Positions 1,233 through 4,144 of a stretch of 10,370 nucleotides of DNA are shown piece after piece. Numbering within the stretch: the first letter of the stretch is position 1; each line of letters begins with the position of its first letter. The notes below the pieces were generated by a model. The model saw nothing but the letters and a program-made list of their open reading frames with translations, had not been told where the DNA came from and did not search any database. The position numbers and the translations under genes are program-made. Source of the DNA: an uncultured archaeon (GTDB taxonomy: Archaea > Asgardarchaeota > Thorarchaeia > Thorarchaeales > Thorarchaeaceae); assembly GCA_964473825.1 (NCBI GenBank), contig CAYYQL010000061.1:1-10370 (forward strand), in the 5' to 3' direction.

Positions 1233-2300
1233 TCATCTCTTTCGTTTTCCAAGAAGGAACTCTTCAACCCATCGCTCAGCCTTGTACATCTTGGTCGCTC
1301 TAGGAGGCTTCTTGAATCCATAGGCGGAGATTGACTCGAGGGCTCCACCTACACCTCTCTTGAGAGCGAGTTTGGCTGCGCGAATTGCATCAAGGAGAAT
1401 CGGTCCTGCATTCGGTCCGTCGGTGACTTCCATTCTGATATCAATTCTCACTGGAGCCGCTCCAAATTGCCTTCCGTTTATGTAGAAGTATGATTCTCTG
1501 CTATTATCCATGAACGGCACAAAATCTGACGAACCCGCGACCAATGATGCATCGTACGGGAGGTCTTGGCTTACGGCCTCACTCTTCACGCGACGCTTTC
1601 TCATTCTGCCCCTATAGTGGGAGTCAAGCGACTCCGCACCACCACCAACATCAAGCTGATAGCTTTCATCTACCCGTACACCACGTGCAACCAGAAGTTG
1701 TAGAATATTCCTGTGAAGAATAGTCGATCCGAGCTGATCCTGGATGTCGTCGCCGACCAGGGGAATACCACGTTCTTGAAACCGTTCTTCCCATTCAGGG
1801 TCTGAAGCAATTGGAATAGGTGTTCCATTGATGAACGCACATTCCGCCTCAAGGCATGCGTTGGCGTAGAATGCAGTCGCCTGTACAGATGAGCCCGGTA
1901 AGAGGTTGATTGCTATCTCTGCTCCAGTATCCTTCAGAACCTTCACAACATCCACTTCTGGAATCTCAGCCACCTTGACTAGTGCCCTCAGATTGTCGTC
2001 AATACCATCATGGACCGGTCCTCGTAGCACTTTAACGCCTGTCTTGGGGACCTTCGCGAATCGCATGACATTATTCGGCTCGGCGAAGATGGCCTCCGAG
2101 AGATCAAATCCGACCTTTGACTCTGTGACGTCAAACGCAGCTACGAACTCGATATCACTAACATGGATTCCTGCAAGGTCCGGATGAATCAGACCGATGA
2201 GTTCCTCTTCGCTCTTGGCATCCTTGTAGTGTTGCAAACCTTGTACAAGTGCACTTGCGCAGTTTCCTATTCCTATGAGCGCTACTCTAACCTTATCCAT
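1233..2300 (-). CDS. ino1: myo-inositol-1-phosphate synthase family protein (archaeal/actinobacterial type), divergent active site
   Basis: Rossmann motif 'VALIGIGNCASALVQG', 'FVAAFDV...KVG.DLSEAIF..PNN', 'GDDI..Q.G.TI.HR', 'YQL.VGG', 'D.PN', 'FKKPP'. Several conserved catalytic-site residues are substituted (see findings), so the ino1 label marks the family rather than a confirmed function. Confidence 0.85.
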   Translation of the reverse strand: MDKVRVALIGIGNCASALVQGLQHYKDAKSEEELIGLIHPDLAGIHVSDIEFVAAFDVTESKVGFDLSEAIFAEPNNVMRFAKVPKTGVKVLRGPVHDGIDDNLRALVKVAEIPEVDVVKVLKDTGAEIAINLLPGSSVQATAFYANACLEAECAFINGTPIPIASDPEWEERFQERGIPLVGDDIQDQLGSTILHRNILQLLVARGVRVDESYQLDVGGGAESLDSHYRGRMRKRRVKSEAVSQDLPYDASLVAGSSDFVPFMDNSRESYFYINGRQFGAAPVRIDIRMEVTDGPNAGPILLDAIRAAKLALKRGVGGALESISAYGFKKPPRATKMYKAERWVEEFLLGKRKR

Positions 2301-2353: not shown

Positions 2354-2361
2354 CTTATAAG
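2354..2361 (-). promoter_or_regulatory. TATA box of the ino1-like gene
   Basis: CTTATAAG about 55 bp upstream of the ATG at 2300, with a purine-rich BRE-like GAACAA on its 5' side on the minus strand. Confidence 0.55.
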
Positions 2362-2364
2362 TTG

Positions 2365-2424: not shown

Positions 2425-2439
2425 GGAAATGCTTATGTG
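2425..2439 (+). promoter_or_regulatory. BRE/TATA-like promoter for the putative ncRNA
   Basis: GGAAATG-CTTATGTG. The TATA-like part (2432-2439) lies about 20-27 nt upstream of the first helix at 2459, and no convincing protein gene follows. Confidence 0.45.
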
Positions 2440-2458: not shown

Positions 2459-2972
2459 GGTTGGACGACGAATCGACAGACATGAGCTTCACAATTGGCC
2501 CGTCAGGGTGGGTCAACAGAAAGCTTCGTGACCAGCGGCTGACCTGAATGTCCTACTATAGGAGGTTCGGCTCTCACCAAATGGTTCAGAGAGAGGCTGT
2601 AGTGGCGCGGGATGTGGGGCTGCGATGACGTTTATCCAAAAGAATGGGTGTGTTTCATAGCCCGTAGGGCACAACATACCAGTCGATTGTCGTCCACCTC
2701 ATTCTCCCGTCCCATCGATTTCAATCGGTACGGTCTGAATTGCACAAGGCCCGACTGCAGTTTGTCAGCGAGCTGCATCCGGATACTCGTAGTTTTTTCT
2801 TTTCTATTACTTGTGTCAACGGGGGCACAGTCTGCACGAGGTTCTGAAACAACAGCTGCAAAATTCTGTCGGAGAACGGAATTCTCAGATGAAGAACCTT
2901 AGAATGGCATTTGGGGTTCTGGAGACGGGGAATGCTTGGTTTCTTATTTCCAGCGCAGAATGCTCAGCTCCA
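2459..2972 (+). ncRNA. Putative large structured non-coding RNA of unknown family (core domain 2459-2698; further hairpins to ~2965-2972)
   Basis: A 17-bp closing helix (2459-2477 with 2682-2698) encloses hairpins 2481-2530, 2544-2570, 2571-2593 and 2617-2663. Further hairpins follow at 2701-2740, 2751-2782, 2812-2829, 2838-2900 and 2906-2964. Non-Watson-Crick pairs are mostly G-U on the + strand. The 3' end is uncertain (2698, ~2800 or ~2972). Confidence 0.6.
2793..2805 (+). terminator. Oligo-T tract, possible archaeal terminator (or internal U-rich loop of the ncRNA)
   Basis: TTTTTTCTTTTCT begins about 10 nt after the 2751-2782 hairpin. Confidence 0.35.
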
Positions 2973-2977
2973 CGCTG

Positions 2978-4144
2978 TCACTCCTCTTCTAAACTCCGCG
3001 CCAGAAGGGTGACAACATCGATGACGTCAACGTTCGAATCGATGAGGCTTGCTCCAGCACCAAGGTTGTGTTCACAGAAAGGGCATGCTGTTGCCAAGAC
3101 GTCGGCCTCCGATTCCTCGGCATCTCTCACTCTGTCTGCTCCAATACGCTTTGCAAGGTCGGAGTCATATGATCTGAGTCCCCCACCGGCACCACAGCAC
3201 ATTGCCTGTTCATGATGGGTCTCCATCTCCACAAGCTCAACCCCCGGAATCGATTTGAGAACGTAGCGTGGGCTATCGTAGATTCCGAGTTCACGTCCCA
3301 TATGGCAGGGATCATGGTATGCTGTTCGGTACTTCCTCGGTAGTCTATTCGGTCTGAGTTTTCCCTCTTTGATCAACCTCTCGGCATACTCTACTATATG
3401 CAGCACCTCTGGAATCTCAATGCCCATCCGGGGGTAGTCTTCTCGAAGGGTCTTCAGACACCCTGCGCAACTAACGATGATCTGCTTTGCACCAGTGGAA
3501 CGTAGCGTTGCCCCCACTTTCTTGGCGTTGTCCTCCGCCTCCTTCGTTCGTCCGGTCCTGAGCATGACCGAGCCACAACAGGGCTCATCCTCCATAATTG
3601 AAAAGTCCACTCCGGCCGCCTTGAGAATCCTTGCCGTATCTTTAGCTACATCTTGTATTCGCATACCCGCAGTACACCCAACATAGTAGAGCGTATCTCC
3701 TTTGGCTGGAATATCGAGTCCGAGTTCTTCAATCCACTTTCGTCTGACAGAATTGTCTTCGTCGTAGGGGTTGTCGTGAGCAATTATCTTCTCACTAATA
3801 GCATCTCTGACATCGTTTGGAATCGCATTCAGAACGTGTCGTACCTGCTCCAGCGCTTTAGCAGGTTCGAACTCTGATGGACAGATTGCTGTGCAATTGC
3901 CGCACAGAGTGCATTGATAGAGAGATTCTGCGTTTTCTGCCGTCCTTTCAAGCACGCCTTCAAGAAGACCCAATGCAACCATGATTTTTCCTCGCATGAA
4001 GCTAGTTTCAAAGCCGCTTGAGTTCTTCCACACCGGACAGATTCCATCGAATCCTCTGCTCTCGTAGACTGCGTTTCTGCACAATCCGCAGCGTCTGCAT
4101 TGAAGCAGCTCCTCTTTCAGATAGTCCAGCTCAATATCAACCAT
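2978..4144 (-). CDS. (Fe-S)-binding oxidoreductase, GlcF/GlpC/HdrD-like (2x[4Fe-4S] plus two CCG domains)
   Basis: CRRCGLC...CP and CTLCGNCTAICP ferredoxin motifs; CCG domains 'GCT...CCGS...CAGC' and 'HDPCH...CCGAGGG...CPFC'. Starts 1 nt after the stop of the upstream oxidase. Confidence 0.9.
   Translation of the reverse strand: MVDIELDYLKEELLQCRRCGLCRNAVYESRGFDGICPVWKNSSGFETSFMRGKIMVALGLLEGVLERTAENAESLYQCTLCGNCTAICPSEFEPAKALEQVRHVLNAIPNDVRDAISEKIIAHDNPYDEDNSVRRKWIEELGLDIPAKGDTLYYVGCTAGMRIQDVAKDTARILKAAGVDFSIMEDEPCCGSVMLRTGRTKEAEDNAKKVGATLRSTGAKQIIVSCAGCLKTLREDYPRMGIEIPEVLHIVEYAERLIKEGKLRPNRLPRKYRTAYHDPCHMGRELGIYDSPRYVLKSIPGVELVEMETHHEQAMCCGAGGGLRSYDSDLAKRIGADRVRDAEESEADVLATACPFCEHNLGAGASLIDSNVDVIDVVTLLARSLEEE

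Follow-up and report, generated by a model that had tools for sequence, protein, structure and literature searches.

A probable stand-alone structured RNA gene between ino1 and an Fe-S oxidoreductase gene of Thorarchaeota

The ino1 intergenic region and the extent of the gene

Our study examined a window of 10 370 nt (the whole stretch of DNA analysed, C61:1-10370) within a 3.27-Mb, 96 % complete genome of an uncultured member of the Thorarchaeota. The window contains a gap at 2301-2977, flanked by ino1 (1233-2300, minus strand) and a CCG/Fe-S oxidoreductase gene (2978-4144, minus strand), and this gap very probably holds a stand-alone structured non-coding RNA (ncRNA) gene at 2463-~2701 on the plus strand. 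The following features were assigned.

2426-2438, plus strand: BRE/TATA promoter element of the ncRNA gene, a CTTAT/CTTAA-type box
2463-2701, plus strand: structured ncRNA gene of ~237 nt, from covariance model matches, position counts and a folding z of -5.3
2463-2477, plus strand: 5' strand of the closing stem P1, pairing with 2682-2695; first five pairs in 68/68 copies, with two-sided changes
2485-2493, plus strand: 5' strand of P2, pairing with 2613-2621; consensus GCUC/GAGC, present in the free MFE fold
2495-2516, plus strand: variable hairpin P2a, from the MFE fold, pair probability 0.83
2525-2540, plus strand: 5' strand of P3, pairing with 2595-2611 and leading to a three-way junction
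2544-2570, plus strand: hairpin P4 with a G2550.G2564 mismatch, the most conserved helix (98-99 % paired)
2571-2593, plus strand: hairpin P5 with an invariant three-base UCA bulge (2586-2588)
2626-2680, plus strand: 3' domain, with P7 (~2628-2646) and P8 (2647-2654/2673-2680) enclosing P9 (2660-2670), from the free MFE fold
2696-2708, plus strand: 3' overhang ACCU and pyrimidine-rich putative terminator; pyrimidine tracts follow the RNA in homologues
2856-2951, plus strand: probable decayed 5' remnant of an ssb (Ssb-like OB-fold) gene, outside the RNA; weak profile match

Alignment of 13 copies of the ncRNA revealed a common 5' GGACG, preceded at 29-31 nt by a TATA-like box, and a 3' CGUCC with a short tail. 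The BRE/TATA element named by the first-pass annotation was borne out, as nearly all homologues have a CTTAT/CTTAA-type box ~30 nt ahead of the first G. This element stays with the ncRNA when a 22-kb insertion separates it from ino1, and the TATA spacing is similar in the SRP RNA genes of three Thorarchaeota. A pyrimidine occupies position -1 in 65/66 homologues, and G2463 is the putative 5' start. At the other end, the ACCU overhang was found in 44/68 copies with C2697 invariant (68/68), while the base directly after P1 varies (A, C or U) and CCA is not encoded. Promoter, -1 pyrimidine and pyrimidine-rich tail are kept across 66 loci, and the homologues range in length from 221 to 262 nt.

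The earlier proposal of a 240-510 nt RNA held at its lower bound, close to the ~237 nt assigned here, and was refuted at its upper bound. DNA searches gave a match in 13/36 same-family genomes, and the homologous alignments stop near window position 2705. The helices drawn at 2701-2964 can be formed as described, but they are not conserved and fall outside the gene: searches of 60 relatives, the sister species among them, gave no match to the segment, and the folding of 2702-2977 (z -1.5) was no better than that of shuffles. Many genomes have the end of the convergent Fe-S gene 0-50 nt past the ncRNA, which leaves no room there for a longer RNA. A contact between an A-loop and a U-tract was rejected, the U-tract (~2794-2806) being outside the conserved gene.

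The region 3' of the gene probably carries a decayed ssb remnant, weakly matching the N-terminus of the protein. The profile match at 2856-2951 is not significant genome-wide (E 2-5 for protein, 3.8 for DNA), and the remnant was accepted as probable only because synteny named the place, with 24 relatives carrying an intact ssb on the same strand and at the same distance. An intact close homologue was seen elsewhere in the same genome (C40:8795-9172). At three loci (L034, L049 and L074) a TATA-like box lies ~110-140 nt before the ssb start, between the ncRNA and ssb, and the long ssb leader, conserved in genus g6, is possibly a regulatory element.

On the other side of the gap, a 16-bp palindrome (2365-2380) was observed just upstream of the ino1 TATA box (2355-2362, minus strand). 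It is the only perfect copy in the genome, recurs with no more than two mismatches in 57/66 loci, and has a similar counterpart in genus g10, from which the ncRNA is missing; it is likely to be an ino1 operator for an unnamed regulator.

Fold, covariation and strand

The free MFE fold of 2463-2701 matched the architecture of the family, in which P1 closes the molecule, P2 encloses the P2a hairpin and the long P3, P3 runs to the three-way junction with P4 and P5, and a 3' domain holds P7 and P8/P9. A 17-bp closing helix had been drawn previously and is present as described; conservation covers 2463-2477 paired with 2682-2695 and does not reach the outer GG/CC extension at 2459-2460. The three hairpins at 2495-2516, 2544-2570 and 2571-2593 were also correctly placed, with pair probabilities of 0.83-0.95. 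The pairings at 2481-2489/2521-2530, 2533-2536/2596-2599 and 2617-2663, by contrast, had been set in the wrong register (probabilities 0.01-0.21). Forcing that structure costs ~10 kcal/mol (-84.8 vs -94.6), and the pair favoured by covariation is 2539-2596.

Among the top covarying pairs were 2473-2686 and 2474-2685 in P1, with 2545-2569 in P4 ranking first. In P2, 95 % of cells were paired on the fitted alignment and 90 % before fitting, while the position of P2a held a hairpin of unrelated sequence in the homologues inspected. Pair 2539-2596 of P3 beats a tree-based null, and all four inner pairs of this helix show two-sided changes in a structure-blind alignment. Four pairs of P5 were 100 % paired, with two-sided changes in all, and the bulge bases occurred in 66/68 copies. 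P8 stays paired despite both sister-species substitutions at 2676-2677. Pairing across the family in the 3' domain was 79-87 %, and the register of P7 differs between genera, making this domain less certain; from these alignments, P7-P9 appear less firmly established than P1-P5.

The fold varies between genera. The P7/P8 motif is rewritten in four genera, and genus g2 (L058, L059) has lost P5 together with the UCA bulge, representing a natural deletion variant. Given this variation and the case of g10 described below, no single motif is universal beyond the ends, P2 and P4. The conserved bases lie inside helices and at mismatches or bulges, and not in long unpaired stretches. The P4 loop (2557-2562) forms a six-base palindrome, which is replaced by other palindromes in several genera and broken in the sister species; as a weak lead, it may be a kissing-dimer site.

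Compensatory changes, for which the first-pass annotation had proposed a test among homologues, support the closing stem and the three-way-junction core, also when the alignment takes no account of structure. Using an alignment fitted only to a 33-pair model, the 72 proposed pairs had 79.7 % paired cells, against 36-45 % for slid partners. A refitted alignment gave 62 pairs at 87 % paired cells, a figure that leans towards the structure through the fitting itself. When the core was aligned with MAFFT, blind to structure, 92 % of cells were paired and two-sided changes appeared in 15/24 pairs. Under the tree-based null, a custom substitution null rather than R-scape, every pair with E<=1 falls in the structure, though only two or three pass clearly. 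Covariation exceeded both the shuffles and the slid controls. Between sister species, 8/237 positions of the ncRNA were substituted, compared with 83/356 third codon positions of ino1 (Fisher p 1e-12). Comparison at the sequence level shows the fold to be under purifying selection.

The plus strand had been proposed on the basis of G-U pairs, and both folding and comparison agreed. The folding z of 2460-2701 against shuffles was -5.3 on the plus strand and -1.6 on the minus strand. Paired columns held 424 G-U cells vs 138 A-C cells, and 112 vs 27 in the structure-blind alignment, and this three- to four-fold excess fixes the strand.

That the region is no RNA gene at all, being instead a DNA element, a small ORF or a chance fold, is highly improbable. 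The small ORF draws some support from stop-free frames of at least 72 codons in 29/68 homologues, compared with 14 % in shuffles, but no reading frame is conserved: the spacings between anchors fall in all three frames through indels, and the window copy has stops in every frame. No Pfam match was found for the overlapping ORFs, including that at 2612-2902, whose 3' part is missing in the sister species and which the earlier annotation had singled out as a possible coding alternative. The predominance of G-U over A-C pairs and the covariation also stand against this explanation. A leader peptide starting from GGAG...AUG in g6 and g11 was rejected, the AUG being ACG elsewhere and the frames shifting.

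Distribution across Thorarchaeota and other genomes

Covariance models and synteny placed the ncRNA in 69/86 genomes of the Thorarchaeota family, representing 15/16 genera, with essentially one copy in each. Model R1 gave 67 convincing matches, and two divergent copies from genus g12 were added via synteny and model R2. Second, partial copies were confined to short contigs that are probably redundant. Metagenomes contributed 22 more full-length copies (146-200 bits), and the named records bearing the same ncRNA are Thorarchaeota. In three tested genomes without the ncRNA this ino1 is missing too, suggesting that the locus was not assembled. Genus g10 differs in that three models found no ncRNA in four genomes; in two of these (L086, L087) ino1 abuts the Fe-S gene, and the locus is without both ncRNA and ssb. 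The ino1 tree places g10 in a basal polytomy and does not distinguish loss of the ncRNA from its never having been present.

Outside the family, no homologue was found in other Asgard genomes by R1 (0/124) or R2 (0/114). A weak R3 match in G188 (E 0.016) lies inside a 681-codon ORF and was taken as chance, and 18 pattern matches in bacteria and other archaea among GTDB genomes all failed the covariance model. These out-of-family searches scored 14-24 candidates per genome with strict filters and rough E-values, so that remote relatives could be missed. The restriction to one family lowers the odds that the ncRNA explains a eukaryotic RNA.

Such a restriction suggests a single gain, as would be expected if the ncRNA were the domesticated remnant of a mobile element RNA (a stand-alone omega RNA or similar). 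This origin is very unlikely, for the ncRNA occurs once, at the same syntenic site, in 15 genera, the closing stem fixes both ends with no variable guide at either, and pattern and BLAST searches of viral contigs, phages and plasmids found no related element.

The conserved position between ino1 and the Fe-S oxidoreductase gene, and the shared strand with ssb where ssb is present, might suggest a cis leader or riboswitch for ssb, or else an antisense or insulating element lying between ino1 and the operon that converges on it. The ncRNA is nevertheless kept where ssb is gone from the locus or where other genes intervene between it and ino1. It remains fully conserved with no same-strand gene after it, has its pyrimidine tail directly after P1, does not overlap its neighbours, and is separated from ino1 in several genomes. 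An element with its own promoter and tail, which survives both ssb loss and insertions, is not a cis element, and we regard this explanation as scarcely credible. In G021 (L009 and L018), the ~22 kb between ino1 and the ncRNA contain genes that look CRISPR-associated by sequence.

Candidate functions and comparison with known RNAs

To our knowledge, few large structured ncRNAs are known in archaea beyond rRNA, tRNA, SRP RNA, RNase P RNA and guide RNAs. That 15 genera of one Asgard family have kept a single-copy RNA suggests a cellular function not yet recognised in this phylum, which is close to the origin of eukaryotes. Genus g10 without the ncRNA, g2 without P5, and the four genera with a rewritten 3' motif provide natural test cases.

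Our preferred reading is a stable housekeeping RNA of ~237 nt that acts in trans, forming the structural core of an RNP specific to the lineage, either as a scaffold or as a protein decoy. Granting that the gene exists, we consider this mechanism evenly poised; taken as a whole, the reading is tentative and falls slightly short of that. The RNA would be transcribed from G2463 as a primary transcript ending in the pyrimidine tract. P1 would protect it, and maturation would resemble that of SRP RNA, with the same helix-plus-ACCU end. More speculatively, the invariant spots (the P4 G.G, the P5 UCA bulge, a P7 G.G and the terminal GG/CC-N-C end) could serve as protein or tertiary docking sites, and the freely varying stems as spacers. 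An SRP-like end without SRP similarity, together with the placing of conserved bases in helices, suggests a stable RNA recognised by shape, as an RNP core or protein decoy. The longest complements to rRNA (9-10 nt) equalled those of shuffles and fell in different places of 16S and 23S in each genome. A guide role in rRNA, rejected here for want of excess complementarity to 16S or 23S, thus seems unlikely, and conserved bases within helices favour recognition by shape. Of the partners considered, the genome yielded neither Ro60 nor SmpB, and SepSecS and SSB are not co-lost in g10.

Since ribozymes and ligand-binding RNAs just as commonly have conserved helices with mismatches, the anatomy is not specific to a scaffold. 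The P3/P4/P5 junction and P7 could form an active site or pocket with no dedicated protein, and the compact multi-junction fold, the invariant non-canonical positions and the short constrained linkers are in keeping with this. Yet Rfam ribozymes and riboswitches gave no match, no host intron or mobile element is present at the locus, and the deletion of P5 in g2 and the rewritten 3' motif in four genera are hard to reconcile with a rigid catalytic core. We therefore consider a catalytic or ligand-binding RNA improbable. The first-pass annotation had offered a ribozyme or an RNP scaffold; the scaffold is plausible, while the ribozyme has gained no positive evidence.

Similarly improbable is a regulatory role confined to certain conditions, in which the ncRNA would titrate a protein that binds RNA, for instance the RG-tailed SSB paralogues, and might dimerise via a palindromic P4 loop. 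An ssb whose product has an Arg/Gly-rich tail lies just downstream of the ncRNA in 24 loci, and six-base palindromes occur in 7/38 distinct P4 loops against 2.5 expected. Against titration, ssb has TATA-like boxes of its own, many genomes have no ssb at the locus, and it is not lost together with the ncRNA; SSB was rejected as an obligatory partner, the family being present in g10. Against the dimer, the loops are related, most palindromes are one inherited hexamer, and many genera have none.

Returning to the RNP core, the ncRNA may belong to a larger picture: the core of an undescribed Asgard housekeeping RNP machine or ribozyme, and a third stable ncRNA beside SRP and RNase P RNA, with a fold that, in other Asgard lineages or in eukaryotes, may have changed too far to be recognised. 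We regard this as possible but unlikely.

Comparison with known RNAs agreed with the earlier view that the ncRNA belongs to no recognised family and is not RNase P RNA, SRP RNA, tRNA or 5S rRNA. Rfam gave no match in the window at E<=5, with chance-level hits only in narrow scans of four homologues, and ARAGORN found nothing in the window. The RNase P RNA (RF00373, C3:138386-138724) and SRP RNA (RF01857, C2:134441-134749) of the genome lie on other contigs, so that the ncRNA is not a diverged stand-in for either, and model R2 with filters off matched neither. No description of such an RNA in Thorarchaeota was found in a literature whose coverage leaves out most subscription papers.

Archaeal SRP RNA (RF01857) is likewise a stand-alone, single-copy gene with a TATA box ~30 nt upstream and a helix joining its 5' and 3' ends, and in Thorarchaeota it has the same four-base ACCU overhang after the terminal helix. 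The ncRNA thus shares the SRP-type terminal helix, the short 3' overhang and its own promoter. In the S domain of SRP RNA a long helix runs into a three-way junction, and in both RNAs the junction that ends such a helix bears two hairpins. Unlike SRP RNA, the ncRNA has no Alu domain, is shorter, occurs in one family only and shows no model similarity. The SRP54 helix-8 loop is also absent, P4 and P5 being Watson-Crick except for one G.G and the UCA bulge. The usual helix 8 consensus has a GNRA loop and AGCA; the SRP RNAs of three genera (L003, the G000 gene at C2:134441-134749, with L198 and L199) were seen to have a UGGC loop and AACAG.

The shared ACCU overhang, an acceptor-like stem, an invariant C two bases past P1, the S-domain-like junction and a T-box-like motif in 11 genera could point to an RNA linked to translation, which either arose from SRP RNA or a tRNA end or imitates one of them; the T-box-like GGGUGGACC might then pair with NCCA. 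This reading has only a slight chance of being correct: R2 found nothing in SRP or RNase P RNA, the helix-8 motif is lacking, and the T-box-like motif, which is missing from the copy in the window genome, shows no covariation with the 3' end. A T-arm beside an acceptor stem with a fixed discriminator and CCA was not seen by ARAGORN or in tail counts, the base after P1 being variable. SmpB was not found in the 96 % complete genome, and the ncRNA has no conserved tag frame. Its AGGGUGG(A)ACC-like run recalls the T-box antiterminator; unlike a T-box, the ncRNA stands alone and lacks Stem I, a specifier loop, a UGGN bulge and a downstream amino-acid gene. Pairing of an internal GGGUGGAC run with the 3' end was rejected, as the 3' strand covaries with the 5' end instead. 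A selenocysteine link, with the UCA bulge as a UGA reader, was rejected on finding SepSecS in 3/4 g10 genomes, which lack the ncRNA. Among the tRNA genes of the window genome (G000), most encode the CCA end, many contain introns and a tRNA-Sec is present (C35:13546-13636). In another genome (G006), a short motif at 143-144 nt spacing downstream of 23S rRNA (L207:6100-6400) suggests a tandem repeat.

RNase P RNA has a closing P1, a P2 enclosing a hairpin and a multi-branched domain, and a 3' hairpin domain, and RNase P/RNase MRP RNA and the ncRNA share this order of elements. Unlike RNase P RNA, the ncRNA has no CR-I/CR-V P4 pseudoknot, and the GAAUGUCC that looks like part of it pairs locally, in a hairpin that covaries. 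No conserved kink-turn boxes of box C/D, H/ACA or U3-like guides were found. A BHB splicing motif and a K-turn in P5 were rejected, the central helix being down to 2 bp in g7 and tandem G.A pairs being absent. Fixed ends and one syntenic site separate the ncRNA from omega RNA (TnpB/IscB).

Y RNA, 6S RNA and Ms1-type RNAs are primary transcripts of 100-300 nt, closed by a terminal stem, which act through a protein partner, and by analogy the ncRNA may work in a similar way. It differs from them in being multi-branched, with no central open-promoter bubble and no Rfam match, and TROVE/Ro60 (PF05731) was not found in the genome. The raiA motif, OLE, ROOL and GOLLD RNAs gave no sequence or model match, and the ncRNA differs from them in being archaeal, single-copy and chromosomal, with no association with phages or tRNA clusters. 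It resembles them in being lineage-restricted, highly structured and of unknown function at discovery. With a structure bearing compensatory changes, a promoter, a putative terminator and no ORF, the ncRNA has the make-up of a stand-alone stable RNA gene; judged by sequence and model comparison, it is outside every family tested and forms a new family among the stand-alone structured RNAs.
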